Shown here: piece after piece, positions 1 to 54,338 of the stretch
Numbering within the stretch: position 1 is the stretch's first letter
Layout: the number at the start of each line of letters is the position of its first letter
Program-made: the position numbers and the translations under genes
Origin: Candidatus Poribacteria bacterium
Lineage (GTDB): Bacteria > Poribacteria > WGA-4E > WGA-3G
Direction: 5' to 3'
Assembly (NCBI GenBank): GCA_965205015.1
Contig: OZ242029.1
Location: 1,760,001-1,824,000 of the forward strand
Length of the DNA stretch: 64,000 nt
Notes under the pieces: model-generated
The model's input: only the letters and a program-made list of their open reading frames with translations
Database searches by the model: none
What the model was told of the DNA's origin: nothing

Positions 1-608
1 AATACCGCAAAAACGAAAGGAATGAGGACGGTTATTAAGGTGCCGAGGAATTTACCGATTAACAGAACCGGGCGCGAAATCGGATTCGCCAGACACAATC
101 GCAAGGTTCCCTGCTGTCGCTCGCCAGAAAGCGCGTCGAAGGTGAACAGGAGCGGAATGAAGGAGAGCAGGTAGGTGATAATGAATACCCAATCTATCTT
201 TGTTGCCTGCGGACGTAAATCTTTCGCGTCTGGATTCGCGGATCCGTAACTCAGCCACCAATTGCTTTTTGCCTTCCACCCCGGACCGCTTTTGGACCAA
301 GACCCCTCGTTCCCTATATTTCCCGGCAGATAAGCATTGCCGCCATCCGCGATGAAGGCAAGCGAAGAGGGACGTTTGTGAAGTTGACTGGGTCCCTTTT
401 GCGCTAAGGTGTACAAATCCGTCCGGGATTTCAACTTGTTGAGCGAACCTGTAACATTCTCAGAATAATCACGGATCCTTTCCGAGTGCGTCCGAAGGTG
501 CACCACGGCGTTGGTAACCATTAAGATGGAGAGTATTACAACGGTTAGAATGAAACGCAGACTATTGATGTGGTCAAAGAGTTCTCGTTTAATGATATGC
601 CAAATCAT
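1..608 (-). CDS. ABC-2 type transporter permease, partial (runs off the window start)
   Basis: Hand translation from ATG at 608: MIWHIIKRELFDHINSLRF...IDWVFIITYLLSFIPLLFTFDALSGERQQGTLRLCLANPISR. This is the same 'D..sGE.e.GTLRL' motif as the neighbouring permeases. Not in the ORF track because no stop lies in the window. Confidence 0.85.
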   Translation of the reverse strand, partial: MIWHIIKRELFDHINSLRFILTVVILSILMVTNAVVHLRTHSERIRDYSENVTGSLNKLKSRTDLYTLAQKGPSQLHKRPSSLAFIADGGNAYLPGNIGNEGSWSKSGPGWKAKSNWWLSYGSANPDAKDLRPQATKIDWVFIITYLLSFIPLLFTFDALSGERQQGTLRLCLANPISRPVLLIGKFLGTLITVLIPFVFAV

Positions 609-776: not shown

Positions 777-2264
777 TTAGACTTCAAGTTTGGTGAAAAT
801 CAGAAATGTCACCGTGAACACAACCAGGTTGATGAGTAGCAGCAAAAACAGTTCTGGCAGTGCCCGTGTTGCGTTTTCCGAGACATCCGCCCGTGCGAAA
901 CGGAACTGGGGCAGATCCCACCAGTCTACCGCGCCTTTGTCAGAGGCGAACCATTGCCGACTGCCGAACGCATCTTTGTCATGGAAATAGTCAATAATGG
1001 TGCGGCGGTAACCTTGGACGGCTTGGACGAAATCAGACATACCGTCCAGATCGGTACCTGCCCACGCCGCGGTTGCAAACGTGTACAGACTCGCAGGACT
1101 GAGTTTCATCAGGCGTTCATGCCATATCGCTCGCCGGAGAGAGGTACTCTCTAAAGTCTGTTTTCGGACGAAAGCGATCTGTTCTGCCGAGCGGATGTAC
1201 AAGGCTCCCATAGTGGCATGATACTCTTGAACATGTGGCACGAGAGGGTCTGATTGGTTTGCCAATTTCATATCTATTCCATACCGTCTGTTGTGGCCTC
1301 CCGACGACGAGAAACTATTTGACTGCTTGGTATTTAGATTGAACTTTTGTGGCTTACCTTCAAGCGGACTGTTCGCTAAAAACCCGCTTTCTTCTCTGTC
1401 AACCTCTTCCCATATCTGTTCAATCTGTTGATCGCCTGATGACCGTATGGCGCGCGTATCACCAACGGGGGTGATAGTAAACCGGCTCCAATTCGGATAG
1501 ACAAGCACCAAAGTTACCCACAAAAACATACAGAGCATCAGGGATGTGGCAGTGCGGCGTGTTGCTGTAGAAATCAACAGTCCAATCAGGTAAAATACGG
1601 ACAAGTAGATGCCGGTCGTTAAAACTATCCCACCGATCCGGAGAAAATCCGCTCCATCCAATTGGATCGAACCGACAGTCGATAACAGAATCATGACCAT
1701 CAGGAGACTGATTAGCACCGGGAGCAGCAGACAAACCATTGCCCCAATATATTTGGCAAGCAGGATGGTTCCACGTCGCACTGGGTGGGAGATAACCAAA
1801 CGCAATGTGCCATTTTCCCAATCTCCTGCAATCGCGTCATAAGCGAAGAGCAGTGCCATCAGGCTCAAAACCACTTGAAAAATGAGGACGAGATCGATCT
1901 TTGAAAAGAGGTTCAGGAACGCGTTATCGAGACTTCGCGCCGAGCCGTCCGAAATCAGTGGGACGGAACCGTGGTAAATTTCGAAGGTGCTTCCCAGCCG
2001 CTTATCCAATCCCGCACTAAACAGACTTAAAGGGTTCGGCGGACGTTCAACGGACAGTTTTAAAGTTGAGTACGTTTTCGCCTCCTGCGCTTTCTGACGA
2101 TGTGTATTTTCTTGCTGGTTATATCTCCCTAATCGACGCTCGTAATCTTCGAGAAGGACGACGGCATTGGCGACAACGAGAAGAAGCGTAATCACGACAG
2201 CGGCAAGAAAGCGAGCGCTCATCAGATGGGAGAGGAGTTCTTGACGGATGAGGTTTCGAAACAT
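777..2264 (-). CDS. ABC-2 type transporter permease subunit
   Basis: 495 aa, multiple TM helices, motif YDAIAGDWENGTLRLVISHPVRR, AAGGAGG RBS upstream. Confidence 0.85.
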   Translation of the reverse strand: MFRNLIRQELLSHLMSARFLAAVVITLLLVVANAVVLLEDYERRLGRYNQQENTHRQKAQEAKTYSTLKLSVERPPNPLSLFSAGLDKRLGSTFEIYHGSVPLISDGSARSLDNAFLNLFSKIDLVLIFQVVLSLMALLFAYDAIAGDWENGTLRLVISHPVRRGTILLAKYIGAMVCLLLPVLISLLMVMILLSTVGSIQLDGADFLRIGGIVLTTGIYLSVFYLIGLLISTATRRTATSLMLCMFLWVTLVLVYPNWSRFTITPVGDTRAIRSSGDQQIEQIWEEVDREESGFLANSPLEGKPQKFNLNTKQSNSFSSSGGHNRRYGIDMKLANQSDPLVPHVQEYHATMGALYIRSAEQIAFVRKQTLESTSLRRAIWHERLMKLSPASLYTFATAAWAGTDLDGMSDFVQAVQGYRRTIIDYFHDKDAFGSRQWFASDKGAVDWWDLPQFRFARADVSENATRALPELFLLLLINLVVFTVTFLIFTKLEV

Positions 2265-7414: not shown

Positions 7415-7512
7415 TTGAAAGAACGATTGTAGGGGCAGGTCTTGTGCCTGCCCACGCATTACGGATTGAAAGAACGATTGTAGGGGCAGGTCTTGTACCT
7501 GCCCACGCATTA
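7415..7512 (+). repeat. Two tandem GTAG-type REP units (GTAGGGGCAGGTCTTGTGCCTGCCC)
   Basis: 51-bp period; the same REP occurs at 13152, 13235 and 14671. Confidence 0.8.
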
Positions 7513-7514
7513 AA

Positions 7515-7567: not shown

Positions 7568-8350
7568 CTATACCACCGCGGAAAGTCCGCCATCAATATT
7601 GATCGCAGTCCCTGTAATAAACGATGCACACTCCGAAACGAGGAAGGCGACAAGATTGCCCACCTCACCCGGTTCCCCTAAACGTCCGAGCGGATGCTCC
7701 GCACCCCGTTCTTCCCAATAGTCCTCGAGCGTTCCGGGTGAACCCGCGGCTTTCCAGGCGCGTTCCCCCTGGGCACTCTTAATCGAGGTCAGACAGACCG
7801 TGTTAACCAAGATTTTGTGAGGTAGCAGTTCTTTAGAGAGTGCCTTCGTCAGAGCGATGCCAGCCGCTCGACTGACGGAGGTCGGACAAGAACCTGCACT
7901 GGGCTGTTTGCCGCCCGGATGCGTGATGTTGATAATCCTACCACTGCCGTTGTTTTTCATGTGCGGGATTGCCAATCGTGCGCAGCGGATAGCACCCATT
8001 AACTTGAGATCCAAGTCCTCGTACCAATCCGCATCGCTGGTACTTTCAAACGCACCCCCCGCAGACTTGCCCGCGTTATTGACTAAAATGTCAATCTTTC
8101 CGAAATGGGTTACGGTTTGTCCAATAAGGTTCTCCAGCGTCTCCGGTTTCGTTACATCCGCCGGGATTGCCAGCACTTCACCACCGGTTTGTGCGCGGAT
8201 ATCTTCAGCCGCATCTGCTAAGACTGATTCGCGTCTCCCGCAAATTGCGACTTTCGCGCCCTCTTCACACAAACGGAGCGCAATACCTTTGCCAATTCCC
8301 TCGCTACCACCGGTAATAATGGCTACTTTTCCAGTTAATCCGAGTTCCAT
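7568..8350 (-). CDS. Short-chain dehydrogenase/reductase
   Basis: TGGSEGIG, LVNNAG and C-terminal ITGTAINIDGG motifs. Confidence 0.9.
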   Translation of the reverse strand: MELGLTGKVAIITGGSEGIGKGIALRLCEEGAKVAICGRRESVLADAAEDIRAQTGGEVLAIPADVTKPETLENLIGQTVTHFGKIDILVNNAGKSAGGAFESTSDADWYEDLDLKLMGAIRCARLAIPHMKNNGSGRIINITHPGGKQPSAGSCPTSVSRAAGIALTKALSKELLPHKILVNTVCLTSIKSAQGERAWKAAGSPGTLEDYWEERGAEHPLGRLGEPGEVGNLVAFLVSECASFITGTAINIDGGLSAVV

Positions 8351-8434
8351 ATTTTTAATTTTCCTTGCGGTTAAACGACGTGAGTTAAATGTGTGTCGTG
8401 CCTTCCTCAGGTCCGCCTGCGCCGTTGTTGCAGG

Positions 8435-13047: not shown

Positions 13048-13265
13048 AGGACTTACGCAATTTCTATGGAAGACCTACGGCCCACACGCCGCTGGCGAGG
13101 TTTGATGAAGTTTAAGACAATATTTCGGTAATTCTATCCCAAAAAACAACTGTAGGGGCAGGTCTTGTGCCTGCCCACGCATTATCTTGTGCCTGCCCAC
13201 GCATTACCGAATTAAATTGTTAATCCTAACGACTGTAGGGACAGGTCTTGTGCCTGCCCACGCAT
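13048..13265 (+). repeat. Nested cluster: partial AGGACTTACGCA MITE plus GTAG REP units
   Basis: The left half of the MITE matches 14402-14460, then switches to the TTTGATGAAGTTTAA...TTCGGTAATTCTAT block also seen at 7378. Confidence 0.7.
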
Positions 13266-13332
13266 TACTATTATGGTTGATTCGTGTGATTTAACCAATT
13301 GACTTGACCGAACCGCAAGGAATAATTAAAAA

Positions 13333-14343
13333 ATGGAAACTACTTTTAAAGCAGGCGTTATCGGTTGTGGCGGACGGGGACGCTCGCATGCACGCGGGTA
13401 TCAAGCCTCCTCAGATGTGGACATCGTCGCCTGCTCTGACCCAGTTGAAGATGCGCGGAACGACTTTGCAGAGCAGTTTGAGGTACCCAACACCTACGAA
13501 AGTTATCAAGAGATGCTGGATACAGAATCCCTTGATTTCGTCAGCGTCTGCACGTGGATTGAACTCCATAAGGATATGGTCATCGCCGCCGCCAAGAGTG
13601 GAATTCGAGCCATCCATTGTGAGAAACCGATGGCACCCACGTGGGGTGATGCGAAGGCGCTCTATCAAGCCTGTGTTGATAACAACGTCGTGATAACGTT
13701 CTGTCATCAACGCCGTTTCGGCGCGCAGTTCGTCAAAGCGAAACGCTTGGCAAATGAAGGCGCAATCGGTGAGTTGCGGCGGCTTGAAGGGGCATGTCCC
13801 AATTTGCTTGACTGGGGAACACACTGGTTTGATATGTTCCTTTTCTACAATAATGACGAACCTGTTGACTGGGTTATCGGTCAAATAGATGTAGCAGAGG
13901 AAAAGACCGTCTTCGGTGTTCAGGTTGAAACGAGTGGAATCTCGTGGATTCGCTGGAAGAACGGCGTTGAAGGGCTGCTCGCAACGGGGGATACGTCTTT
14001 AGGCGGCTTCGGCAACCGTCTCATCGGTACGAAAGGTATCATTGATGTGGGAGGGGGTGGCGCGCCGTTGCGGATGCTCCGTGAAGGCGGAGACGGATGG
14101 GAAGTGCCCGATTTAAGCGATTTAAGCCCTGAACGCGACGCAACCACACTCTCTATACTTGATCTGATCCACGGTGTAAAGACAGGACGAGAGCCGGAAC
14201 TCAGCGGTCGCAAAGCACTTCAGGCAACCGAACTCATTTTTGCAACGTATCAGTCGAGCCGACAGCGTGCAAAGGTGAATTTGCCGCTGACAGTGGACGA
14301 TTCGGCGTTGCTGACCATGGTTGCCACTGGCGATATCGGTTAG
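13333..14343 (+). CDS. Gfo/Idh/MocA family oxidoreductase
   Basis: GVIGCGGRG, CEKPMA and DWGTHWFD motifs. Confidence 0.9.
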   Translation: METTFKAGVIGCGGRGRSHARGYQASSDVDIVACSDPVEDARNDFAEQFEVPNTYESYQEMLDTESLDFVSVCTWIELHKDMVIAAAKSGIRAIHCEKPMAPTWGDAKALYQACVDNNVVITFCHQRRFGAQFVKAKRLANEGAIGELRRLEGACPNLLDWGTHWFDMFLFYNNDEPVDWVIGQIDVAEEKTVFGVQVETSGISWIRWKNGVEGLLATGDTSLGGFGNRLIGTKGIIDVGGGGAPLRMLREGGDGWEVPDLSDLSPERDATTLSILDLIHGVKTGREPELSGRKALQATELIFATYQSSRQRAKVNLPLTVDDSALLTMVATGDIG

Positions 14344-14494: not shown

Positions 14495-14851
14495 ACAGTG
14501 TTTCGCTCCGTTGGTGTCTCTATAATTTTATCAACCTAATTGAAATTTCTGCGTCTAATCAGAATAAAGGGGATTCTTACACATCTGTTCCCCAAGAACG
14601 TGAAATCAAATAATCGGAAGCAGTCAATAGATACAAAATATGGTAAACCCGAAAAATAAATAGACATCTCGTAGGGGCAGGTCTTGTACCTGCCCGCCAA
14701 TGCATAGGTCCATAATGTCCAATTAATTCTAAGGTTTACCATAGTTAACAGAGGTCGGTTAAGGGACTGTCCTGTTGAACCAGAGTCCTCTTTAAATTTT
14801 AATGAATAACTGGCACCTGTAAAAATAGGGCACGGAATCTGTCCGGAAAAC

Positions 14852-17800
14852 TTGTGCCTTCACGCGAATCGCCGAAATTTAGTTAGCTTCGGACTCGCGA
14901 CAAGTAGGGAGAAGCGAGTGTCAACAAATAAAGATATGTACGGTGTAACTTGCAGGTCGATGCACAACAGTCGAGATCAACGTGATAGTGGAAGTTATCC
15001 TCCCACCCGATTCCCAATCCGCTCCGGGTTGGCGAATTTTCTCTTTTTTCTGAGTTTTGTTTGTTTCGCAATCCTAACGATACCGACCCCCGGTTGGACA
15101 AAACTGACCGGTTTGAGAGTCGATGCGGGTGGGGATAACATTTTCAGAGGCGGCGTAGATAGATTGCGGATTACCTTCAGTGTCGATGATGAGGACGACG
15201 AGGCTCCCTATATCGTTCAGGTGATGAACGAGGGTAAGACTGAGACCTTGGGGATCATCGATCAAGGGACCGTGTCGGCAGATGAGACGGTGAACCTTTT
15301 TTGGGACGGCACTATTAACGGCACACGCCTGCCGGACGCTATCTATACGATCCGTGTTACTGTTGATGATGGTGTTGTTGATGATGGTGTTCCTCCGGCA
15401 GATGAGGTTTTGACAGCAAAAGCAACTTTGGATACCAGTAGACCGCGTGTTTCCGGTGTCTTCGCAAACGATGATCCTGCTAAAGAGATTACCGATGGCA
15501 GTTTTATCACGGAACCGCTCGAATCAATTATGGTAACAGGGGTGGATGAAGGCGTAGGCGGTGATATTGATCTCGGTAACAGGCGAAACACTATTTTCCT
15601 GAGAAATGCACAGCAGGTTGTCGTGCGCGGAACTCTCGATTATCGTCCTGGACAGGAGGGCGGACAAGACAGGCCAGCGGTTCCTGGCAGTCTAACCTTT
15701 ACTTTAGTAGATCCCTTGGACGAACCTTCTGAAAATGGAAAATACACCCTTATTCTCATCTTAATAGATGAAGCCGGTAATGTGGTCCAAAGTTTGCGGG
15801 AATTTACCTTTGATAACATCAAACCCCGTTTGAGAAGAGTCTCGACCAACAGAGGGGGACTCATTCCGGGGGGCGGTGTGAGTCAGCGCCTCAATTATGT
15901 TGAAGCGGTACTCACGGATAACCTTGAAGACGGTGTCGATCTCTTTGAATCTACCATAAAGCTCTATCGCAAAGCCGACGGTACTGGCGAGCAGACTCTT
16001 ATACCGGGAGAAAAAACGGAGGATGTTGAAAGTGGTAAAATCCGGTGGAGCCTCCTAACACCCTTGTTAGGCAGAGACGATTCCCAAGATGGTGAATATA
16101 TTATTGAGGTCACCGTCGTTGATAAGGCAGGTAACCCAGCGGATGCGGTGCAGATTCCGTTTCGCTACGATAACCGGGCACCGAGCCCTGTGTCGGTAAG
16201 CCCTATGGACAATAGGGACGAACCCTTTGGTCCCTTTCCCGATACCAATTATTACAATGCCCCCATCACCGGATTTATCGTTGACTTTGGTGATACGGAA
16301 ACGGACGTGGACCTTGCCGGCAGGCGGCGATCTACGCAGATTGTGTTTGGGACACCGAAAGAATCTGGGGAGGGTGTGAATGTCCTTGAAGGACGCGTCG
16401 TCACAGATACCGATAGCAATACATTAACTTACATCCTCAATCAGCCGATCGTCAGTCGCGATGGCACCCAAGATGGACAGTATCTCCTCAACGTGCAGGC
16501 AACGGACACCCTCGGCAATATCAAGACTTACGATTACCAAATCGTCTACGATACGCAGCCGCCAGCACTCGTTTCTACAACGCCAACCTCCAACGAGACC
16601 GTCTCAGAGTTATCACAGGTTCAGATCAAGCTCGATGAAAAAACCAGCGGCATCGATTTCGTTCAGAGCGACATCAACTTTCAACTCTGGAAAGGGAGAG
16701 CGGCAGATGTTCTCCAAGACGAGCCGTCTGAAGCAAGACAGGTGCCTGTGAATATCGCGAGTAACGGCATGGATACAGTTACGCTGACCCTCTTGAAACC
16801 GATTGCTTTGGACTTTTCAGATGATGGCACCTACACAATTAAAGTCGCTCCCATTGACCGCGCGGGCAATCCAGGTGGGAATGCCGTGCGCGAGTTCTAC
16901 CTCGTCAGCCAGAAGCACGAACCCGAAGTCCGATTGACACTGCCCGAAACGACAACCGTCAACACGTTCCCGATGGTTGCCGTGGAACTGGTGGATTATG
17001 TCGGCGCGGGTATCGACTTTAACGCGTCAACGCTGGTTGTCAGAAACCCCGAGGGGGCTCCGGTCTCACAGGAAAAAATTGTACGCGATGCAGCAAACAA
17101 CGCATTAACCTGGACGACTGAAGCGGTGATCCCGCCTGATGGAAGTGCGGATGGTGAATATACCATAATTGCGACGTTTGTCGATTTTACGGGAAAAAGT
17201 TTTACACAGCAGTTCTCGTTTGTTTTGGACACACAGGTTCCCGAAGTTGAAAGCGTACACGTGGCAATCGAATCCCAACCCGAGCTTTCTGTGGAGACCA
17301 TAACGACGTTTACCGAGAGTTTTTCGCAAATCATCGTAACTTTTGAGGACACCCGCGGAGACGCTGAACAAGATTCGCAGGGACTCAGTAATGATGTTGA
17401 TTTTGCGGATACCGTGGTTGCGTTAGCGGGACCGGAGGGTTCCATTTCGACGAATGTCTCTGTCTATAGTCCCACGCAACTCGCCATCCGTTTTGTTGAA
17501 TTGATAGAGGATGGTTCGTATACGCTGTCGGTGACCCCTCAAGATATTGCTGGTAATACTGCCCGAGGTGCCCTGCACTACGCATTTCTGATTGATACTG
17601 AGAGTCCTCGGATAACTGCGGCCTCTCCGATAACATTGAGTGAACCTGTCTCTTATATCGGCACGGATTTCAGACAGTTTGTGTTTACGATTGAAGATGT
17701 GGGGCCCGCGGATCTATTTCTTGAGGAACAGACTGTTACGTTATTAGACGCTGCTGGCAATACTGTTCCCACTACACTAACGTATGATGAGCCAACAGGT

Positions 17801-20800
17801 CAGCTGTACCTCAGGATTGTGTCTCCATTTGCCCAAGATGGGAGTTCAGATGGCGAATATAGCGTGAAAATATCGCTTGTTGACAAAGCGGGGAACCGTT
17901 CGGATTCTGAACACACCGTCGTTTATGATTCCAAAGTGCCGCAGCTTTCTTCTGTCGTGTTGAATACTGAGCCTTCAACAGTGCTGGAACCGCAGCTGAT
18001 TGAGATGATTACTGAGCCCGTTAGCAGTATTACCCTTCAATTTTTTGAGGAAGCGACACGCATTGACTTTACCAATACCGCGGTTGAGTTAGCAGGTCCA
18101 GTAGAGGCTGCTGTCCCGGTCAATGTATCTGTGGATACGCCTACACAACTCACTCTCCGTTTTGTTGAATTGATAGAGGACGGTTCCTATACACTGTCGA
18201 TAACGCCGCGGGATATTGTGGGGAATGCTGCACAAGGTGCCGTGCGTTACGCGTTTATGATCGACACGGAAGCCCCTCAGATCACTGCCCCGACACCTTT
18301 GATATTTAACCAGAGTCCTGTTACGTATATCGGTAGCGCATTAAGACAATTTCAGTTCGCGTTTACTGTTACAGATGTAGGTCCAGCGGATCTGTATTTG
18401 GAGGAACAAACCATTGAAGTCGTGAGTGCATCTGGGGTGAATATTCCGGTCGCTGTGACGTATGACGAGTTGACGAATCAAATCTTTTTGTCACTGCCTG
18501 CCTCCTTTCCTCGAGACGGGAGTGTGGATGGTGAATATACCGTAAAAGTCTCGCTCGTCGACAAGGCGGGGAATCGTTCGGATTCCGAGTACACCGCGGT
18601 TTATGATTCCAAGGCACCTCAAATAGGTTCGGTGATGGTGAATACTGACCCCCCGATGGAGCTTATCCCGAATCGGGTTCCCGAGCTCGTGGAACCTATC
18701 AACAGTATCACCCTTCAATTTGAAGAGGCGACGCGGATTAATTTTGCCAATACGCAGATCACGTTGATGGGACCCGAATCAACGACTACGGACGGTGAGG
18801 CTACAACACCCACAATTCCGCTGACATTGGAGGATGATGGCGTATCTCAGATGACCCTCAGTTTCTTGGATTTGGAACAGATCGGTGCGTATGTCCTGTC
18901 TGTTACACCGCAAGACGTAGCAGGAAATGCCGCCGCAGGTCCTACTGAGTATAGATTCCTTGTGGAGATACCGCTGCCGCGCGTCGGTGCTGTTGTTATC
19001 GGGGAAGTAGAAACAGAGGCAAGCGGGGATGTCGCCTACGTCAATGCAGGCAATATGCGCATCGGCGCGTTTCTCCTTGACCCGACGGAGACGGGGTTAT
19101 CCTTTGGTAATGAAGGATCGGTTATCCAGGTGACGGAATCCGATGGAACCACAATTGTTCCCGGTAGAATAGGCTCCAATGGAGAAGACCTGATCGTTTG
19201 GGAACCGGTAACCCTTACATCGGATGGCACCACGGATGGCAGATACAATGTAGTCGTTGTACCCATTGATAAAGCCGGGCGGCAAGGAAGCGCGGTGTAT
19301 CGTGAATTTATCTATGACACACAGGAACCAGAGATCACAGCGGCTGGCCCAATCCCAATAGATTTGAGTCAACCCGTCTCCTATATGAGCCAGAGTTTGA
19401 CACAATTCAACTTCACTATCCAAGATATCGGTCCCGCAGACCTTGAGTTGTCGGATCAGGAAGTCAGCCTCCGCGATGCAGGGGGTGGTTTGGTCCCGGC
19501 ACAACTCACGAACAATGCTGAAAACCGACTCTTCCTCACGTTAGACCAACCCTTACCCCTCGATGGCAGTATGGATGGGGAATATACCCTCCGTGTTGCG
19601 TTGGTGGATAAGGCAGGAAACCCCTACACGGTCGAACACCTGATCGTCTATGATACACAGGCACCCACGCTTGTTTCTACAGTGCCAGCTGATGGTGCCC
19701 TACTGACAGAGGATATTACGGAGGTACACGTAACGCTCAACGATGAAGGTGGGAGTGGTATTGACTGGACAGCAACGACGGTGATGTTGGTTGACCCGAC
19801 TGGCGAGCAAATATCCGGTGAACTCGTCAGTGACGGAGAAACCGAGTTAACCCTTACGACAAACCAACTCGTTGAAGATGGTCGATATATCGTCCGTGTG
19901 CAAGCCTTTGACCGTGCAGGCAACGGAGGCGCGGTCATCTTTGAGCAGAGTTTTCTCTTGTCAAGGCGTTTGCCCACCATTGTTTCGACGGAACCTATTA
20001 CAGCACCCGTGGATGAAGCGTTTATGAATGAAGAACTCGAGCGGATAGAAGTAACGCTTGAAACAGATGACGAAAATCACTTATCAACACTTCGTTTACT
20101 AAATCCTGCTACTGAGGTCGTCGCGGGACAACTGCAACGAGAAACTGATCAGTTGATCTATAATCTTGTCCGGCCACTCGCCACCGACGGGTCCGAAGAT
20201 GGGGTCTATACCATTGAATTTACACCCATCAGTGCTTCTGGACGGAGCGGGGCGCTTCAACGATTGACCTTCACCTACGACACAGAGGCACCAGAGATTG
20301 AGACAGATGAAGCAATTAACCTCGTTGTCGTGCAACCGGAGGTTAACAATTCTCTGACAGAAATTCACGTCAGTCTTACCGACGACACGTCCGGCATTGA
20401 TTGGAAAAGCCTTGACGAGAAATGGTTGACCTTTGAACGACTGTCACCGAATCCAGCCAAAATTTCGGGACACATCTCTGACGATGGAGAAGAGACCCTG
20501 ACTTTCCGGTTGACTGTGCCGCTCGCAGACAACGGTTCCGCAGATGGTGAATATCGAATTACCCTTAACCCGAAGGACCGGGCAGGTAACGACGATGAAC
20601 CTTATGAAAAGGTCTTCGTCTACGATACCAGTCCGCCGATGATTGATTCAAGCACGTTACTTATCAATGAGGTGCCACTCCTTGTTGACATCAATGCGGA
20701 AAATTACCCAACCGCGGTTTCAACAACAGGCGGTGTTGTCCTCCAGGCGAACATCTTTGACACTGGTTTAGGGGTGAACTTGGCGAAATCGAGGATTGTT

Positions 20801-21682
20801 GTGAGAGGTCCCGATGGATCGGAGATTTCGGGTAGCACGCAGCAGAACGGCGTGGACACTCTCATTTTCAAATCCGATGGATTTAGGGTCGAAGGTATCT
20901 ATAATGTCACGATTGTGAGCATCGGGAATGATTCCGAACTCCTCGGATTCGCACCAACGGATTCGTTGACCACCGCATTTCTATATGAAACCACCGTACC
21001 GACTGCCGCTATAACGAGCGATGGGGGTGAAACCGAGCTGACCGATAAGGCACTCCCTTTAGAAGGTACAGCCGCCGACCCAAGTGGCACGCAGCGGATC
21101 GGTGAAAACGAAATTCAAGTCCCGGCATCCGGCGTATGGCTCGTTGAGATCGTCGGCACCGGACCCGACAAACAACCCATAGATCCTGTTGCTGCTGTTG
21201 ATGATAGCGACGCAGAACAGGAACCGTGGAGCGTTTGGTCGATTGACTTTCTGCCAACACGTTCCGGTGAATACGACTTAGATGTCCGGGTCACTGACAA
21301 TGCGGGGAACTATGAGGTTTACGACATTGGCGAGTATACGATGTCTGTATCTCTCACTTTCCGAGGGTCGACCTTTGGATGGCCAAACCCACTCCGACTT
21401 TCAAAGCGGGATGTTGCTTTCTTCTCCTTTGATGTCAATGTGCCACGCGGAGACACGATTGAACTCACACTGAGTATCTACGATTGGAGTGGTGACATGG
21501 TACTCTCCCAAACGTATCCCGATGTTGTATCAGGGCAGCGCAACGATCAGTTGGTGAAGTGGAATTTGGAGAATCAGGCGGGTACCCCTGTCGCACGAGG
21601 CCTCTATGTCTTCAGATTGGAAGCCGTCAATTCAGCGGGAAATCGCGCCAACATTGTCGGCAAAGTGTTGGTCGTGGAATAG
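14852..21682 (+). CDS. Giant Ig-like repeat surface protein with C-terminal FlgD-Ig/T9SS type A-like sorting domain (true start probably somewhat downstream)
   Basis: Many ~110-aa repeats ending DGxYxxxxxxxDxAGN; acidic; C-terminus WPNP...IYDWSGDMV...WNLENQAGTPVARGLYVFRL. Confidence 0.85.
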   Translation: MCLHANRRNLVSFGLATSREKRVSTNKDMYGVTCRSMHNSRDQRDSGSYPPTRFPIRSGLANFLFFLSFVCFAILTIPTPGWTKLTGLRVDAGGDNIFRGGVDRLRITFSVDDEDDEAPYIVQVMNEGKTETLGIIDQGTVSADETVNLFWDGTINGTRLPDAIYTIRVTVDDGVVDDGVPPADEVLTAKATLDTSRPRVSGVFANDDPAKEITDGSFITEPLESIMVTGVDEGVGGDIDLGNRRNTIFLRNAQQVVVRGTLDYRPGQEGGQDRPAVPGSLTFTLVDPLDEPSENGKYTLILILIDEAGNVVQSLREFTFDNIKPRLRRVSTNRGGLIPGGGVSQRLNYVEAVLTDNLEDGVDLFESTIKLYRKADGTGEQTLIPGEKTEDVESGKIRWSLLTPLLGRDDSQDGEYIIEVTVVDKAGNPADAVQIPFRYDNRAPSPVSVSPMDNRDEPFGPFPDTNYYNAPITGFIVDFGDTETDVDLAGRRRSTQIVFGTPKESGEGVNVLEGRVVTDTDSNTLTYILNQPIVSRDGTQDGQYLLNVQATDTLGNIKTYDYQIVYDTQPPALVSTTPTSNETVSELSQVQIKLDEKTSGIDFVQSDINFQLWKGRAADVLQDEPSEARQVPVNIASNGMDTVTLTLLKPIALDFSDDGTYTIKVAPIDRAGNPGGNAVREFYLVSQKHEPEVRLTLPETTTVNTFPMVAVELVDYVGAGIDFNASTLVVRNPEGAPVSQEKIVRDAANNALTWTTEAVIPPDGSADGEYTIIATFVDFTGKSFTQQFSFVLDTQVPEVESVHVAIESQPELSVETITTFTESFSQIIVTFEDTRGDAEQDSQGLSNDVDFADTVVALAGPEGSISTNVSVYSPTQLAIRFVELIEDGSYTLSVTPQDIAGNTARGALHYAFLIDTESPRITAASPITLSEPVSYIGTDFRQFVFTIEDVGPADLFLEEQTVTLLDAAGNTVPTTLTYDEPTGQLYLRIVSPFAQDGSSDGEYSVKISLVDKAGNRSDSEHTVVYDSKVPQLSSVVLNTEPSTVLEPQLIEMITEPVSSITLQFFEEATRIDFTNTAVELAGPVEAAVPVNVSVDTPTQLTLRFVELIEDGSYTLSITPRDIVGNAAQGAVRYAFMIDTEAPQITAPTPLIFNQSPVTYIGSALRQFQFAFTVTDVGPADLYLEEQTIEVVSASGVNIPVAVTYDELTNQIFLSLPASFPRDGSVDGEYTVKVSLVDKAGNRSDSEYTAVYDSKAPQIGSVMVNTDPPMELIPNRVPELVEPINSITLQFEEATRINFANTQITLMGPESTTTDGEATTPTIPLTLEDDGVSQMTLSFLDLEQIGAYVLSVTPQDVAGNAAAGPTEYRFLVEIPLPRVGAVVIGEVETEASGDVAYVNAGNMRIGAFLLDPTETGLSFGNEGSVIQVTESDGTTIVPGRIGSNGEDLIVWEPVTLTSDGTTDGRYNVVVVPIDKAGRQGSAVYREFIYDTQEPEITAAGPIPIDLSQPVSYMSQSLTQFNFTIQDIGPADLELSDQEVSLRDAGGGLVPAQLTNNAENRLFLTLDQPLPLDGSMDGEYTLRVALVDKAGNPYTVEHLIVYDTQAPTLVSTVPADGALLTEDITEVHVTLNDEGGSGIDWTATTVMLVDPTGEQISGELVSDGETELTLTTNQLVEDGRYIVRVQAFDRAGNGGAVIFEQSFLLSRRLPTIVSTEPITAPVDEAFMNEELERIEVTLETDDENHLSTLRLLNPATEVVAGQLQRETDQLIYNLVRPLATDGSEDGVYTIEFTPISASGRSGALQRLTFTYDTEAPEIETDEAINLVVVQPEVNNSLTEIHVSLTDDTSGIDWKSLDEKWLTFERLSPNPAKISGHISDDGEETLTFRLTVPLADNGSADGEYRITLNPKDRAGNDDEPYEKVFVYDTSPPMIDSSTLLINEVPLLVDINAENYPTAVSTTGGVVLQANIFDTGLGVNLAKSRIVVRGPDGSEISGSTQQNGVDTLIFKSDGFRVEGIYNVTIVSIGNDSELLGFAPTDSLTTAFLYETTVPTAAITSDGGETELTDKALPLEGTAADPSGTQRIGENEIQVPASGVWLVEIVGTGPDKQPIDPVAAVDDSDAEQEPWSVWSIDFLPTRSGEYDLDVRVTDNAGNYEVYDIGEYTMSVSLTFRGSTFGWPNPLRLSKRDVAFFSFDVNVPRGDTIELTLSIYDWSGDMVLSQTYPDVVSGQRNDQLVKWNLENQAGTPVARGLYVFRLEAVNSAGNRANIVGKVLVVE

Positions 21683-41394: not shown

Positions 41395-42600
41395 TCAATA
41401 CTGACCGCGAAGCGTAACAGTCGCGATGGTATGTGTGTAGTTAAGGAAATCAAGGAATGGATCTACCTCATTTGTACGGTTCTGGGTAACCTGATAATCA
41501 GCGTTGAGTGTTAGATATGGATTAAATCCCCAATTCAACTGCACATTCGCACCTATCTGTGTGTCCCGACGGTCTGGTGCGTTTTCTGGTATATTCCCGA
41601 GTTCATCCGGAATCTGTCTACCTTCAAAATGCACCCAGAGTCTGGAGAAGCGAAGCCGAAGCCATCTTCCCGTCTCAAGTCGATAAAAGGAACTTGCTGC
41701 GACTTCGGTGCTAACGAAGTTAAAGAAATCGGCGTTGGAACGGTTCAGAAATAGGTTAACCTCTTCTTGGAACACGAACCTGTCCATTGCGGCCTGTATC
41801 AGTTTTGCGGAACCTATGTGTCGCCAATCCTTCCGAGGTTTGTCGTCGTCAAGCCCTGTTATCCCTAAGATAAGATTATTCAGATTGGTTTGGTAGCTAC
41901 TCTGCTCTATTCCGTATTCCAGTTTGCCCAAGATCTGTTTAAAAATTCCAAATTGCAACCGTGTCGTTATATGATGGCTGGTAGAACCGACGAGCAGAAA
42001 ATCATCTCTTCGCGAGTCTTCATCGTCAAATCGGTGTAACCGCAGATTATATTCCAAAACGCGCCCAAAACGGAGACCGAATTGCCGTTCGGTGTTATTA
42101 TAGACGTTTGAAGTTCGCACGAGGCGTTGTAGTCGATGTGAGGTGACGAGAGGTGGTAAATTCGCAACGGGTTGGAAACTCACTTCAGTTAAGAATACAT
42201 CGCTAACCGCATTGAATTCGTTGAGTTTTCCGTCAGCACCGGTGTAGTTTTCAACTTGTGGCGCGTATTGCAACTTGAACCTAAGTTTATCGGTTACCGG
42301 TAAATCCCCGACCAGATTAACACCGAAACGGTTAATCATACCTTCAAGTTGTGGATCTTCTTTACCGACGAGCCCACTGGTATAACGGTCGAGGCTGAGA
42401 CCGAATTCAATGTGGTTGTTGAATGTATTAGAAAAGTGGGAGTCAATTGTAAGTGTCGCGGCATCGGTTTCAGGCGTTTCGGGTTCTCTTTCTAACAGGC
42501 TCTGCCCAAATTCAGATTGAAGTTGGGCTTGCACGCTGCTTACACCCAGTTGTATAAAGATGAGGAGGTATGTCACCAAAGAGAAAGCTACTTTTTTCAT
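41395..42600 (-). CDS. Putative outer membrane beta-barrel protein
   Basis: Signal peptide, alternating amphipathic strands, C-terminal aromatic residue (LRGQY). Confidence 0.65.
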   Translation of the reverse strand: MKKVAFSLVTYLLIFIQLGVSSVQAQLQSEFGQSLLEREPETPETDAATLTIDSHFSNTFNNHIEFGLSLDRYTSGLVGKEDPQLEGMINRFGVNLVGDLPVTDKLRFKLQYAPQVENYTGADGKLNEFNAVSDVFLTEVSFQPVANLPPLVTSHRLQRLVRTSNVYNNTERQFGLRFGRVLEYNLRLHRFDDEDSRRDDFLLVGSTSHHITTRLQFGIFKQILGKLEYGIEQSSYQTNLNNLILGITGLDDDKPRKDWRHIGSAKLIQAAMDRFVFQEEVNLFLNRSNADFFNFVSTEVAASSFYRLETGRWLRLRFSRLWVHFEGRQIPDELGNIPENAPDRRDTQIGANVQLNWGFNPYLTLNADYQVTQNRTNEVDPFLDFLNYTHTIATVTLRGQY

Positions 42601-42692
42601 TTTTTATCGGATTCCGGTGTCAAAACCCCTGAATTCATTCGGGGGATGTAGACACCGCCTTCTTGGAAGGGACCAAAACATTCATTTTTCCA

Positions 42693-42722
42693 TTGACGTT
42701 TGGTCCGAAAGTGTGCTATAAT
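42693..42722 (+). promoter_or_regulatory. Strong sigma70 promoter inside the element
   Basis: TTGACG...TGCTATAAT: near-consensus -35 plus extended -10. Confidence 0.75.
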
Positions 42723-42724
42723 AC

Positions 42725-43042
42725 TATTAGAGTGTAAGAGGTTGCTATAGAGGGTTGTTACGCGCCTACAGGGTTAGATTCCTATAGTGTAAAGCTCTAA
42801 TATCTAAAATCCCGCAAGCCGTAGCTTACAGTCGTTAGTAGGGAAAGACGCGTAATGGCGAATCCCGTTTGAAACATACGACTCAAAACTTTTCGTAAGG
42901 ACACTTCGGTGTCGCAGTTGGGATAGCAACTGTTGCAGTAGGACCGAGTAAGACTTTCGTAAGAAAGCAACGGTCGTTGATCGCACGAGTGCTTCTGCTT
43001 AACAATTGCAGAAGCCCCCGACTTCAGTCGGGGGTCTATCAC
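42725..43042 (+). ncRNA. Large structured RNA with a 3' TnpB omegaRNA-like domain
   Basis: No plausible ORF; many stems, UUCG and GUAA tetraloops; GTAAGAC...GCAA motif and right-end hairpin typical of IS605 right ends. Confidence 0.65.
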
Positions 43043-43809
43043 TCAATCATTCCGTCCTGCGGACTTGAGGCGGTCGCGTAGAGTTTGCGCGGAATACGTC
43101 CAGCTAAAAACGCCGCTCTACCCGCTTCGACTGCTTTTTTCATTGCCTCCGCCATCAGCACCGGACGATGCGCTTTCGCGACCGCTGTGTTGAGCAGAAC
43201 ACCATCACACCCTAACTCCATTGCTATCGCTGCATCCGATGCCGTCCCAACGCCAGCATCCACGATAAGCGGCACTTGCACAAGATTCCGGATAATCTGG
43301 ATATTATACGGATTGCGGATCCCCATCCCTGAGCCGATCGGGGCACCTAACGGCATCACCGCTGCACAGCCAATATCTTCTAATTTCTTACACGTAATCG
43401 GATCGTCGTTACAATACGGGAGCACGGTAAAGCCGTCTTTGACGAGTGATTCCGCTGCGCTGAGCAGCTGCTCCACATCCGGAAACAGTGTTTCCTCGTC
43501 TCCGATAACCTCGAGTTTGATGAGGGATGTCTCAAGTGCTTCACTGGCGAGGTTCGCTGTTAGAATCGCGTCCTTGGCTGTGAAACAACCGGCGGTGTTT
43601 GGAAGGATGGTCATACCCCGTTCACGGAGAAGCGCGAACAAATTCTCACCCGGTGTATCTGTAAATTTCACGCGACGCATCGACACCGTCGCAATTTCGG
43701 CACCGCTCGCGGCGATGGACTCCGTCATTATATGGAAATTCGGATATCCTGCCGTTCCGATAAGGAGTCTTGATGTATATATTTCGTCAGCAATTTTAAA
43801 TTCTTGCAT
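43039..43809 (-). CDS. thiG: Thiazole synthase
   Basis: [25 protein letters not shown] and [10 protein letters not shown] motifs. Confidence 0.95.
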
Positions 43810-49321: not shown

Positions 49322-49467
49322 TTGTCAGTGGAGGAGTCTTCAGTCATGGGTAAACTTCAACAAGAATAGCACCAAGATTGTAGCGCGTAATGAAATGGAG
49401 CGCGGATTTAAGAAAAAGATGCTAAAGTCCAAACCCACTTTGTTTAACCGCAAGGAATAATTAAAGA

Positions 49468-50643
49468 ATGCCTATTTTTCTCATCGGGACGAATGCTCCA
49501 GACATCGGAATCGATGATCGGCTGAGTTGGGTTTGGCGTTCCGATGCCTATCAAAATCTCATCGTCATTGCATGCCTTATCGGTGCGGCGTGGCTCCTCC
49601 GATACGCCGCACAGCAAGCGTATTGGCGCAACGCCGCAAGACAAATTCGCAAGAACCCCCTCGCTATTGTTTGCCTTTTCGTTCTCTTAGGGTACCTCCT
49701 TGTCGGTGTGTTAGATAGCATCGGTTGGCGTGACCCACTCATACGGCAGACCGATCAAACACTTACCCGAAATGAGAGGGGTGCCGTTGTCTATAAACCG
49801 AGAGGGTTAAGTCTTCTTGATAGACTTTGCACACCGCTTCGGGAACGGACTGAAAAAACCTATTCCGCACCGTTAGCAACACATCTGTATGCGAAAAGCA
49901 CCCTCCAAACACCGGATGGACGCACGGTTCGCGACTATCCACCGCTTCAGTATCCCCGGCGTCATCTCCTTGGTACCGACAAAGTCGGCAATGATGTCCT
50001 CTACCGTGCTTTAAAAGGCATCCGCACAGGACTCGTTATCGGTGGATTGACCACCTTGATTGCTGTTCCGTTCGCCATATTTTTCGGTGTTATCGCCGGT
50101 TATTTTGGGGGGTGGATAGACGATGCCGTTCAGTACATCTACGCCACGCTCGATTCCATTCCGTCTATCCTTCTGATTGTTGCCTTTATGCTCCTCTTTG
50201 GACAGGGGTTATTCAATCTCTGTCTCATCATGGGCATCGGAAGTTGGACGGGACTGTGTCGTATCCTACGCGGTGAAACCTTGAAACTCCGGGAATTGGA
50301 GTACATCCAAGCGTCCGAAGCCTTTGGTGTCCATCGTGGACTTATTATTCTTAAACATCTCGTTCCGAACCTCATGCATATCGTGTTAATTTCCACCATC
50401 TTACGATTTAGTGGGCTGGTGCTCACAGAAGCGTTGCTCAGTTACCTCCAAATCGGTGTTGAACCGACGACGGGAAGTTGGGGCAATATGATCAACACAG
50501 CGCGTTTAGAACTCGCTCGCGACCCGGTTGTCTGGTGGAATCTCACTGCGGCGTTTGTGTTTATGTTCGGATTGGTACTCCCTGCAAACCTCTTCGGCGA
50601 TGCCGTCCGTGATGCCTTAGATCCAAGGCTGAGGACGGAGTAG
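49468..50643 (+). CDS. Peptide/nickel ABC transporter permease (OppC/DppC-like)
   Basis: LGTDKVGNDV, EAA loop YIQASEAFG, KHLVPN and GDAVRDALDP motifs. Confidence 0.88.
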   Translation: MPIFLIGTNAPDIGIDDRLSWVWRSDAYQNLIVIACLIGAAWLLRYAAQQAYWRNAARQIRKNPLAIVCLFVLLGYLLVGVLDSIGWRDPLIRQTDQTLTRNERGAVVYKPRGLSLLDRLCTPLRERTEKTYSAPLATHLYAKSTLQTPDGRTVRDYPPLQYPRRHLLGTDKVGNDVLYRALKGIRTGLVIGGLTTLIAVPFAIFFGVIAGYFGGWIDDAVQYIYATLDSIPSILLIVAFMLLFGQGLFNLCLIMGIGSWTGLCRILRGETLKLRELEYIQASEAFGVHRGLIILKHLVPNLMHIVLISTILRFSGLVLTEALLSYLQIGVEPTTGSWGNMINTARLELARDPVVWWNLTAAFVFMFGLVLPANLFGDAVRDALDPRLRTE

Positions 50644-52177: not shown

Positions 52178-53191
52178 CTATAGAAAAACCTCACGTTTGA
52201 ATCTGAGCAGTAACCACAGAAAAAATGGACCGCCGATCAGCGCGGTGACAATGCCAACGGGCAATTCAGCAGGGGCGACGACGGTTCGTGAGAATAGGTC
52301 TGCCGAGACAAGTAGGATCGCACCACCGACTGCTGAACCGGGTAACACATACCGATGATCTGCGCCACCCAAAAGTCTCAGCAGATGTGGCACAACGAGC
52401 CCTACAAAACCGATGCCACCTGCGGCGGAGACCGCCGCGCCTACCGTTAGTGCAACACCGAAAACCGACCACCTTTTCAGAGTTTCCGTTGAAACGCCGA
52501 GATGATACGCTTCGGATTCTCCCAAACTCATGGCATTCAATGCGGCTGCCTGTCTTAACAACACGGACAATCCTATAATTGCAATCGGTAGCGTTATGAA
52601 AACAACGGGCCACGTCGCACCCCCAAAGCCACCGAGTAACCAAAAAGTCAGGCTGCGTAACTCCTCATCGTCAGCGAGAAACGTCATTAGACCGATACCC
52701 GCGCCAGCGAAACTGTTAAGAGCAATGCCTGCCAACAGGAGGGTCAATGTGCGCACTCTGCCTTGTTCCTCTGCTATTTTCCATACGGCGATGGTCACAA
52801 GGACTCCGCATCCAAAAGCGGCGATAGGAAGTCCCCACACGCCTAACGCCCCTCCACCAATCAGGACAATCCAGAGTGTCGCGCCTAACCCCGCACCTGC
52901 TGTGACACCGATTAATCCCGGGTCCGCCAGTGGATTGCGGAAAATACCTTGCAGCGTCGCCCCCGAAATGGCTAACATTGCGCCGACAACAGCAGAGAGA
53001 ATAACGCGTGGGAAACGGACATGGACCAGGACTGCGAAGCCATTCTCTCGGGAAAATAGAATCTCAGGGATACGCCACGGTAGGATTTGATATGCGCCTA
53101 TCCCTGCCGCAACGCACATTGATACTGGAAGTAAACCGATGAGTGTTAAGAGAATCTTGATATATTTAAGGGGCATCGACGATGTTTCCAA
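52178..53191 (-). CDS. hmuU: Heme/iron ABC transporter permease (FecCD family)
   Basis: RFPR, QGIFRNPLADP, IGFVGLVVPH and ELPVG motifs. Confidence 0.88.
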   Translation of the reverse strand: METSSMPLKYIKILLTLIGLLPVSMCVAAGIGAYQILPWRIPEILFSRENGFAVLVHVRFPRVILSAVVGAMLAISGATLQGIFRNPLADPGLIGVTAGAGLGATLWIVLIGGGALGVWGLPIAAFGCGVLVTIAVWKIAEEQGRVRTLTLLLAGIALNSFAGAGIGLMTFLADDEELRSLTFWLLGGFGGATWPVVFITLPIAIIGLSVLLRQAAALNAMSLGESEAYHLGVSTETLKRWSVFGVALTVGAAVSAAGGIGFVGLVVPHLLRLLGGADHRYVLPGSAVGGAILLVSADLFSRTVVAPAELPVGIVTALIGGPFFLWLLLRFKREVFL

Positions 53192-54338
53192 ATGCCGCAG
53201 CGACCAACGTCAAATCCAGTATGTTCACGATGCCATCTGCATTGACATCCGCATCGTTTTCTCCGCTTTTGCCGAAGTTGGACGCAATCAGAGTTAGGTC
53301 AAGGATGTTAACAGCACCATCCCTATTGACATCTTCGGCAAGGTGATCTGGTGCAGCAGAAGGCAACTCCCATAACAACACCACGCCATCCAACCCGTTA
53401 CTCGCAAGGGTATTGCCATCTGGACTAAACGCTACGCCAATAACCGGATCCGTATGTCCTGTGAACTTTCGTATCTCGTTGCCAGTCGCAACATCCCACA
53501 GACGCAGTGTGCTGTCCCTACTACCACTTGCAACGGTATGACTCTCTGGACTAAATGCTATGCTAACGACCGCGTCCGTATGTCCTATGAGGGTTTGTAT
53601 CTCGTTGCCAGTCGTAACATCCCACAGACGGGCGATGCCTTCCTGCCAAGCACCACCACTCGCAAGGGTGTTGCCATCTGGACTAAACGCTATGCTAATG
53701 ACCGCATCCGTATGTCCTGTGAGTTTTCGTGTCTCGTTGCCAGTCGTAACATCCCACAAACGGACAGTGCGGTCCGAACCACCACTGGTAAGGATCTTGC
53801 CATCTGGACTAAACGCTATGCTACTCACCCAACCTGTATGTCCTCTCAGGGTTTGTATCTCGCTGTCAGTTGCCACATCCCACAAACGGATGATACCGTC
53901 CCTATCACCACTTGCGAGGGTGCTGCCATCTGGACTAAACGCCACGTTAATGGCGCCAGCATGCTCTGTGAGCGTTCGTATCTTGCTGCCAGTTGCAACA
54001 TCCCACAGGTGTCCAGTACCGACAGTGCCGTCCGAACCACCACTCATAAGCGTGTTGCCATCTGAACTAAACGCTATGCTAATGACCGCATCTGTAGGCG
54101 CTGCGATCAGGTCAAGTTCCTCACCCGTCTGCGCGTTGTAAAGCCAAATCTCAGTACCAGTTGCTACCGCGAGATGCGTGCCATCGGGAGAATACGCGAT
54201 TTCGCTTATCGTGCCTTTGTCGAGGCGGGCTTTGGCACCTTCCGGTAAATCCGATTGTGTGAAATCTTGGGCAAAAACGTTTGTTGTCACTGCAAATATG
54301 GCAACCCAAATCAGTGAAATAGAAAATCTATTTCTCAT
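53166..54338 (-). CDS. WD40-repeat protein with C-terminal dockerin-like EF-hand pair
   Basis: Repeated GH...V.SIAFSPDG..LASG..D..VRLWD; DVNRDGAVNILDL and DVNADGIVNILDL. Confidence 0.9.
   Translation of the reverse strand: MRNRFSISLIWVAIFAVTTNVFAQDFTQSDLPEGAKARLDKGTISEIAYSPDGTHLAVATGTEIWLYNAQTGEELDLIAAPTDAVISIAFSSDGNTLMSGGSDGTVGTGHLWDVATGSKIRTLTEHAGAINVAFSPDGSTLASGDRDGIIRLWDVATDSEIQTLRGHTGWVSSIAFSPDGKILTSGGSDRTVRLWDVTTGNETRKLTGHTDAVISIAFSPDGNTLASGGAWQEGIARLWDVTTGNEIQTLIGHTDAVVSIAFSPESHTVASGSRDSTLRLWDVATGNEIRKFTGHTDPVIGVAFSPDGNTLASNGLDGVVLLWELPSAAPDHLAEDVNRDGAVNILDLTLIASNFGKSGENDADVNADGIVNILDLTLVAAAFGNIVDAP

Follow-up and report, generated by a model that had tools for sequence, protein, structure and literature searches.

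Between thiG and a gene for a 401-amino-acid protein, in a 64-kb stretch of DNA from a Candidatus Poribacteria bacterium (the window, meaning the whole stretch analysed), lies an element of 435 nt that occupies positions 42608-43042 on the + strand and begins directly after the tetranucleotide TTAT. By comparison with its relatives it is one copy of a multi-copy, protein-less family of the IS200/IS605 type, and it is probably a non-autonomous, protein-less member of an IS605-type (tnpA+tnpB) Poribacteria family, similar to palindrome-associated transposable elements (PATEs), whose RNA would work in trans with TnpB. PATEs are reportedly gene-less derivatives of IS200/IS605 elements (PMC3119063, PMC10055086). 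Retained in the element are the left end (LE) hairpin and that of the right end (RE), both of which an external Y1 TnpA would need, the tnpA promoter and an omegaRNA scaffold of ~130 nt, and where full elements have tnpA and tnpB there stands a conserved, pseudoknotted RNA domain of ~190 nt. An earlier note on this DNA, made from the sequence alone, had also called it a protein-less transposon, and comparison of copies and autonomous relatives agrees and gives the type. The note had the element begin at the promoter; it starts instead at 42608, the LE hairpin at 42616-42656 having been overlooked. The right boundary that it drew after TCAC (43042) and its TTAT target are borne out by the alignment of copies and by metagenome contigs that diverge before 42604 or after 43042.

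The aligned copies follow a common plan: a TTAT flank with the element opening in C, the nested LE hairpin, -35 and -10 boxes, ~190 conserved nt, a second block of ~130 nt and a terminal hairpin. The right terminus reads GTCTATCAC in the window and in three other loci (L091, L106 and L105) and GAGTATGTCAA in most copies; beyond it the flanks are unrelated, and the neighbours of the copies are varied housekeeping genes. The copies thus have the features of PATEs, being multi-copy, placed 3' of a conserved short target without target duplication, in unrelated flanks, with subterminal imperfect hairpins homologous to those of tnpA-bearing elements (L150, L143, L156, L148, L152 and L142). The invariant 29-nt S1 hairpin pattern GCAGTTGGG-N4-CAACTGTTG-N2-GTAGG, scanned for in 175 Poribacteria genomes with at most 2 mismatches, was found in 15 of them, at 38 places altogether; the reversed-pattern control gave 0 matches. 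In a related genome, G001, several places match window positions 42840-42988 and others 42601-42658, with both found ~370 nt apart at one place. Contigs of four public sequencing runs give a summed contig depth over 42612-43015 several times that of the flanks, a quantity that is not a copy number (gaps in contig cover were not counted as evidence), and contigs from other loci enter the element at 42604 and exit at 43042. No second copy was found elsewhere in the window, blastn of 42690-43062 against plasmids and phages gave no match, and a metagenome pattern scan returned only one contig (L161). Some members of the family are truncated or rearranged (L086/L118, L210, L211 and L182); in L182 (about 1501-1717, minus strand) GGCATCTATTGCACGTTT is duplicated internally in the 5' domain and the right end is broken.

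The element's RNA region carries no + strand open reading frame (ORF) of at least 40 aa between 42722 and 43042, as the earlier note had held. Antisense ORFs of 81, 60 and 40 aa lie inside the element and have no conserved counterpart in most copies. An antisense small protein was considered and rejected, since frames of ~100-125 codons opposite or overlapping the RNA occur in only some loci and in another region than the window's 81-aa frame. When 27 TnpB-family and 20 TnpA-family ORFs were compared by tblastn with 91 small-element loci and their fetched flanks, matches appeared at 3 loci only, in each case to the C-terminal tail of TnpB, over 19-44 aa and within the 3' module.

Autonomous relatives tie both ends of the small elements to tnpA and tnpB. 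Five related genomes hold 14-50 TnpB zinc-ribbon matches and 1-13 Y1 TnpA matches each. In an nhmmer profile made from the copies, the first ~110 positions, with the LE, match DNA upstream of tnpA, and the last ~140 match DNA that overlaps and follows the tnpB stop in the same elements (L138, L133, L129, L150, L153, L156 and L143; E 8e-23 to 3e-18). One of these, L150, is a complete LE-tnpA(140 aa)-tnpB(391 aa)-RE element (Pfam Y1_Tnp 2e-36, OrfB_IS605 2.3e-23, Cas12f1-like_TNB 1.5e-18). By analogy with the established TnpA/TnpB cycle (PMC8612924; PMC10055086), mobilisation by a Y1 TnpA acting in trans would be expected. Genome G001 holds 9-11 small elements; many of its 14 TnpB zinc-ribbon matches fall in short open frames, and it has only one weak Y1 TnpA match, of 26.9 bits. 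This metagenome-assembled genome (MAG) may be incomplete, as may the other MAGs used.

The earlier note had placed a promoter upstream of the RNA, and the TTGACG and TATAAT boxes found there, 18 nt apart with a TG before the second, fit the sigma-70 consensus at 11 of 12 positions. In the autonomous elements the same TTAT and C and the same hairpin are followed by TTGACA-17-TGgTATAAT ahead of tnpA. Among the distinct small copies that include an LE, 36 in number, 24 have a match of at least 10/12 at the homologous place, compared with 0/36 on the reverse complement and 23/720 shuffles. The element promoter is thus, by homology of position, identifiable as the retained tnpA promoter, and transcription would be expected to run from it onward into the 3' flank. 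P1, the first helix of the RNA, starts just 3 nt past the -10 hexamer, so that the transcript may begin only downstream of its first pairs.

The 5' domain is, on comparative evidence, a conserved RNA fold and not decayed tnpA or tnpB. A covariance model (R1), built from 16 majority-type relatives with the window left out, covers P1, P2, P3, the small hairpin, P4-P5-P6 and P7 and matches the window's domain at full length. In a plain MAFFT alignment (A3), 96.2% of cells are paired, against 31-45% when the pairing is slid, and 15 pairs are changed on both sides, against 1-3; over 29 distinct rows, in an alignment fitted to the model, the values are 95.4% against 29-47%, with both-side changes in 32 of 43 pairs against 3-10. 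The pseudoknot, a pairing between the 3' portion of the P2 loop and the bases right after P1, forms a contiguous helix of at least 6 bp in 46 of 52 distinct rows, compared with 542 of 2600 shuffled tails, and is realised by 30 different sequence pairs (among them AGCAGU/ACUGCU, GUCAAU/AUUGAC, GAUAUU/AAUAUC, AGUCGU/ACGACU and the window's UUAGAU/AUCUAA). P5 and P6 covary locally (CGC/GCG, CAG/CUG, CAC/GUG, AGC/GCU, GUU/AAC), and long stretches of the domain are invariant and unpaired. The fold at this place in the window outdoes shuffles on the + strand (z -3.7) as well as on the - strand (z -4.6).

The pairings listed by the earlier note (P1, P2, TTAGAT/ATCTAA, P4, P7, S1, S2 and the terminal hairpin with TCAC) lie where it put them and show compensatory changes in relatives. 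It had added a long-range pairing of GTTGTTACGCG-CCTAC (42754-69) with GTAGG...CGCGTAATGGC (42838-59), which finds no support, the 3' bases sitting in P5 and P6 and the partners mismatching in the closest relatives, L091 and L103; its phrase "multiply pseudoknotted" therefore reduces to one supported pseudoknot, TTAGAT/ATCTAA. Its separate claim of an extra structured domain that is not decayed coding sequence agrees with the translated searches. Decayed tnpA or tnpB as the origin of the domain was rejected: when 27 RNA bodies were compared by blastx with all ORFs from 40 TnpA/TnpB loci, matches appeared only from query position 189, that is, in the 3' module; an apparent 44-aa extension in L177, with two stops and little identity upstream of HKVG, was likewise set aside. 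R1 itself gives nothing at E <=1 in the same 40 TnpA/TnpB loci with default filters, and a search of 14 of these loci with filters off scored no higher than 8.7 bits (E 0.87). Rfam 15 has no match at gathering score in the whole window and none at E <=1 in the 5' domains of L095, L171 and L183.

R1 matches occur in 51 of 150 Poribacteria genomes, with ~185 matches in all and at most 14 in one genome, and they span at least three classes of ends (TTAT...TCAA, TTAT...TCAC and TTAA/TTAG...TGAC); ~480-nt forms of the element with TCAC ends are also matched. In complete loci the 5' domain is always accompanied by ends and scaffold. A third class of small elements (L171-L191, for example L171, L173 and L183) has a left flank of TTAA or TTAG followed by C, a different 3' scaffold and termini in ...TATGAC or ...TTGAC, with the same 5' domain.

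In full tnpA+tnpB elements of related Poribacteria the right end overlaps the 3' end of tnpB. The 3' module shares homology with that right end, compensatory changes included, which argues that it is an omegaRNA scaffold, as its resemblance to IS605 right-end omegaRNAs had suggested earlier. A second covariance model (R2), based on the 3' module as it occurs in 25 stand-alone copies, that of the window among them, finds 15 places in the 40 TnpA/TnpB loci, all at full length (E 2.4e-24 to 9e-5). In an alignment fitted to the model, 95.2% of cells are paired against 38-58% when slid, and 20 of 27 pairs have both-side changes against 3-7. Resemblance by descent to tnpB sets in with CAC AAG GTT GGG, four codons whose first base is also that of hairpin S1, and autonomous elements of genome G073 (L148, L152 and L142) terminate in ...GGGGGTCTATCAC, as the window's element does. 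Inspection by eye, the only search made for an omegaRNA-type pseudoknot in the module, showed no conserved pairing. No tnpB lies in cis in the window or in the fetched flanks of the 91 loci; the window RNA would therefore have to act in trans. Larger TnpB-like genes (~530 aa) were considered as dedicated partners, and four loci gave no R1 or R2 match with filters off. These TnpB-like ORFs of ~528-563 aa (L212-L215), without a nearby match to either model, occur in several Poribacteria genomes.

Table 1. Features of the element and its neighbours (positions in the window; RE, right end; LE, left end; TAM, transposon-associated motif)
Feature	Position	Strand	Sequence or basis
TTAT target site, presumed TAM	42604..42607	+	directly 5' of element; TTAT then C at left flank of all full copies and all autonomous tnpA+tnpB relatives
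LE, nested imperfect hairpin, then spacer to promoter	42608..42692	+	GGTGTC 42616-21, CCCC/GGGG 42626-45, GACACC 42651-56
Sigma-70-type promoter	42693..42722	+	TTGACG-18-TG-n-TATAAT; 11/12 consensus match, TG before -10
5' RNA domain	42725..42913	+	R1 matches 42720-42913 full-length, 47.9 bits, E 3.4e-9
P1	42725-33 / 42794-802	+	TATTAGAGT/GCTCTAATA; compensatory changes in relatives
P2	42745-50 / 42782-87	+	CTATAG/CTATAG; compensatory changes in relatives
Pseudoknot	42774-79 / 42802-07	+	TTAGAT/ATCTAA; covaries
Small hairpin	42816-27	+	R1
P4	42830-35 / 42878-83	+	AGTCGT/ACGACT; compensatory changes in relatives
P5	42841-44 / 42863-66	+	GGGA/TCCC; local covariation
P6	within 42849-60	+	CGC/GCG; local covariation
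P7	42900-13	+	GACAC-TTCG-GTGTC; compensatory changes in relatives
3' module, putative omegaRNA-type scaffold and RE, 129 nt	42914..43042	+	homologous to tnpB 3' end region in L133, L138, L129, L150 and others
S1	42914-33	+	GCAGTTG/CAACTGT, then conserved TTGCAGTAGG
S2	42942-75	+	GACCG...CGGTC with inner CTTTC/GAAAG, then GTTGATCGCACGA
S3	42990-43015	+	3' module
S4/RE hairpin	43015-34	+	then TCTATCAC 43035-42
Presumed guide segment	43043..43062	+	by position only; antisense to last thiG codons; TCAATCATTCC... as presumed guide; TTAT + TCAATCATTCCGTCC as predicted target
thiG, 256 aa	43039..43809	-	Pfam ThiG 1.9e-109; alignment with L001 and L002
401-aa gene, signal-peptide-like N terminus	41395..42600	-	orthologue follows thiG in L001 and L002

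The window's thiG product is 90% identical to ThiG of two Poribacteria MAGs (L001 and L002), and the distance from thiG to the next gene is 438 nt in the window against 81 nt in L001 and 55 nt in L002, so the stretch between them is an insertion of ~360-380 nt or more. No Pfam family matched the product of that next gene, the 401-aa gene, whose ATG stands 7 nt from the left boundary of the element. The TTAT target is the reverse complement of the A-TAA that contained the original thiG stop codon on the minus strand. When 42608-43042 is removed in silico, the minus strand reads ...ATG ATT GA/A TAA AAA ATG... (the slash marking the junction), which restores a ThiG ending in M-I-E-stop (compare DMIE* in L001 and GLIE* in L002) and puts the start of the 401-aa gene 3 nt behind thiG. 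With the element present, its last bases give GA/G TGA, by which the Glu codon and a stop are retained; the present TGA (43039-41) and the last base of the final Glu codon derive from the element's end. The ATG of the next gene has been displaced from 3 nt to 438 nt behind thiG (window 42598-42607 and 43039-43047), and the two genes may have been uncoupled by this displacement. In a less related population (run X7) thiG ends in GAG TAA and is followed by other sequence, without the element, and on a contig of run X4, ~86% alike, the same thiG/401-aa junction has 661 other letters in place of the window's 584 (42455-43038), so that this relative may hold a different insert there.

How the element may work can be set out from these parts. 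A TnpA from a full element would move the gene-less element in trans. Its promoter would yield an RNA of ~315 nt that passes the right end into the flank; if the transcript passes the RE, the guide segment would start at 43043, a guide role suggested by the biology of TnpB (PMC8612924, PMC10097598), and by geometry alone the read-through transcript would run antisense to thiG. A full element's TnpB would bind the 3' scaffold in trans, and the flank-derived guide together with TTAT would steer cutting of the empty site after excision, whereupon recombination would restore the copy. TnpB reportedly processes its own mRNA into omegaRNA (PMC10278001), and the junction of the 5' domain falls exactly on the 5' border of the minimal scaffold. 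The domain is combined with several scaffolds and end types, so a generic role is most likely: it would stand in for the tnpB-mRNA context as a module for folding, stability or processing, and not be a protein-binding part of the scaffold, and this is the weakest part of the proposal.

The most serious alternative concerns the 5' domain itself. It is possible, though we think it clearly less likely than a generic role, that the domain represents a novel type of functional RNA through which a transposon without proteins of its own parasitises the machinery of IS605 elements, by capturing TnpB from omegaRNA made in cis, by recruiting TnpA or by processing itself. We regard as unlikely the stronger form in which the domain is the purpose of the element, as a decoy or competitor for TnpB or TnpA, a regulator of transposition or a self-processing RNA, with the 3' omegaRNA serving for retention only. 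The domain is conserved more widely than any single 3' scaffold, across three end types, it combines long invariant unpaired stretches with a covarying pseudoknot, and it is absent from all the TnpA/TnpB loci examined; yet the Rfam searches (window at E <=10; L095, L171 and L183 at E <=1) found no known ribozyme or other family, nhmmer on both strands found no antisense match to autonomous elements, and in complete loci the domain never occurs without ends and scaffold. A catalytic role is pure conjecture. It is distinctly improbable that the pairing works in DNA, the folded top strand compacting a single-stranded intermediate and joining LE and RE for TnpA, with the RNA incidental. IS200/IS605 elements do move as top-strand single-stranded DNA, the same strand as the predicted RNA (PMC10055086), G-T wobbles are tolerated in DNA hairpins, and covariation cannot separate RNA from top-strand DNA; against this stand the promoter retained at the homologous place in 24 of the 36 copies, loops of GNRA and UUCG type and a pseudoknot that are typical of RNA, and the lack of such a domain in full elements.

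Still less credit is due to a dead, decaying IS605 remnant without present function, for which one could cite the single copy in a window that has no tnpA or tnpB and the truncated or rearranged members L086/L118, L210, L211 and L182. The ends are intact, up to 14 R1 matches occur in one genome, compensatory changes are seen in 32 of the 43 pairs, the promoter is conserved, and translated searches find no remnant of tnpA or tnpB in the 5' domain. We give next to no weight to a cis-regulatory leader or terminator of the neighbours, at the 3' end of thiG or as the 5' untranslated region (UTR) or riboswitch of the 401-aa gene. The stretch does sit between these two genes and its minus strand also folds well (z -4.6), but it is missing between the same genes in L001 and L002 and found between unrelated genes elsewhere, its G-U pairs and promoter are on the + strand, and no riboswitch family matches; since it is an insertion relative to L001 and L002, a riboswitch, UTR or terminator of the neighbours was ruled out.

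Several results weigh against the trans-acting omegaRNA element that we prefer. The window's 64 kb contain no tnpA or tnpB, and 12 of the 36 copies have no good sigma-70 match. An exact empty site was not recovered in close relatives, the flanks of L193 and L194 mapping non-adjacently in G167 and others. Rfam returned only chance-level matches for 42500-43200 (E 1.6-7.3, searched at E <=10), and the window RNA has no HgcC match at E <=10, a sub-threshold one being seen, among the RNAs compared, only in L150. Alignments A4 and A6 were fitted to covariance models, which inflates their pair counts; A3, made by MAFFT only, still gives the 96.2% against 31-45% cited above. Shuffle controls are also inflated, as related sequences can outscore shuffles without any structure, and it is conceivable that the conserved pairing serves the single-stranded DNA intermediate and not an RNA.

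The IscB/IsrB omegaRNA (HEARO) is a large pseudoknotted guide RNA of an IS200/IS605 nuclease and may lack an adjacent ORF; IscB omegaRNA has its guide at the 5' end and is situated upstream of iscB. For the window element this type was rejected: no HEARO match appeared for the window RNA at E <=10, a check the earlier note had called for along with the covariation of homologues reported above, and a promoter that points to the right end, with homology to tnpB-linked ends, indicates a 3' guide. HgcC RNAs are associated with the 3' ends of tnpB-type genes. In the autonomous L150, the region of the right end and omegaRNA (255-372, minus strand) gives a full-length sub-threshold match to Rfam HgcC (RF00062; 27.9 bits, E 0.004, gathering score 50).

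Gene-less IS605-family elements, the PATEs, "often encode omegaRNAs" that TnpB uses in trans, as stated in a 2023 preprint by Meers et al. (PMC10055086), so that the earlier note's candidate for an "undescribed system" goes too far. Like PATEs, the window's element is short, without ORFs, bounded by LE and RE hairpins of IS200/IS605 type, inserted on the 3' side of a 4-nt target that is not duplicated, multi-copy and, as we infer here, moved by TnpA in trans; unlike them, its interior has a covarying, pseudoknotted RNA domain of ~190 nt behind a retained tnpA promoter. What is new is this conserved 5' domain joined to the retained promoter, gene-less omegaRNA elements being already known. A literature search, which did not extend to supplementary files that may show PATE anatomy, turned up no account of elements of this kind with a conserved 5' RNA domain under a promoter, and no paper containing both Poribacteria and TnpB.

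Compared with the ISDra2 TnpB omegaRNA, or right-end element RNA (PMC8612924, PMC10097598), the window element shares a right-end scaffold (129 nt against a working scaffold of 116 nt), the use of the 3' flank as presumed guide and a TAM equal to the transposon target, and in its full relatives the scaffold start coincides with the last ~20 tnpB codons, as in TnpB omegaRNA. In ISDra2 the 5' extension is trimmed and dispensable (PMC10097598); unlike it, the window element has no tnpB in cis, has its own promoter and carries as 5' extension a conserved fold in place of trimmed coding sequence, and a counterpart of the ISDra2-type pseudoknot was not identified in its module. IStrons, group I introns fused to IS605 or IS607 elements, among which an ORF-less PATE with IStron ends has been shown in a preprint (bioRxiv 10.1101/2023.11.20.567912), likewise have structured RNA in the 5' part and omegaRNA in the 3' part of an IS605-type element; unlike the IStrons described there, the window's 5' domain has only ~190 nt and matches neither a group I intron nor any other Rfam family. 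A group I intron or IStron was rejected on that ground and because 85 nt of the element separate the LE boundary from the promoter, which would leave an IStron 5' splice site outside the transcript.

Elsewhere in the window, six copies of a 41-nt GC-rich hairpin repeat, GTAGGGGCAGGTCTTGTGCCTGCCC..., similar to repetitive extragenic palindromic sequences, are intergenic at 7422-7513, 13145-13268 and 14664-14704. An ORF of 2276 aa with internal repeats of ~680 nt occupies 14852-21682, and tandem coding repeats with a period of 126-132 nt lie at 53376-54096 inside the ORF 53166-54338 (minus strand). The motif AACCGCAAGGAATAATTAAAAAATG ends in the start codon at several genes (13311-13335 and 49446-49470 on the + strand; 606-650 and 8345-8386 on the - strand) and may serve these genes as a shared leader or ribosome-binding region.

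Cas12 descends from TnpB systems, which are themselves compact genome editors. The making and loading of TnpB guide RNAs is an active question, and the family described here would supply its omegaRNA in trans from a promoter of its own. It is kept in about a third of the sampled Poribacteria genomes, always with the same 5' domain at the edge of the minimal scaffold, and such retention points to a selectable function of the 5' RNA module, in stability, folding, processing or competition for the nuclease. With three end/TAM classes and one shared 5' domain, the family is a natural set of variants suited to questions on the efficacy of omegaRNA in trans and on survival beside autonomous elements. 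If the domain were indeed a parasitic functional RNA, these elements would be hyperparasites of TnpB transposons, and the RNA module might be transferable onto engineered guides. In the window copy, a transposon has landed on a stop codon and supplied a new one, leaving the ThiG protein unchanged.

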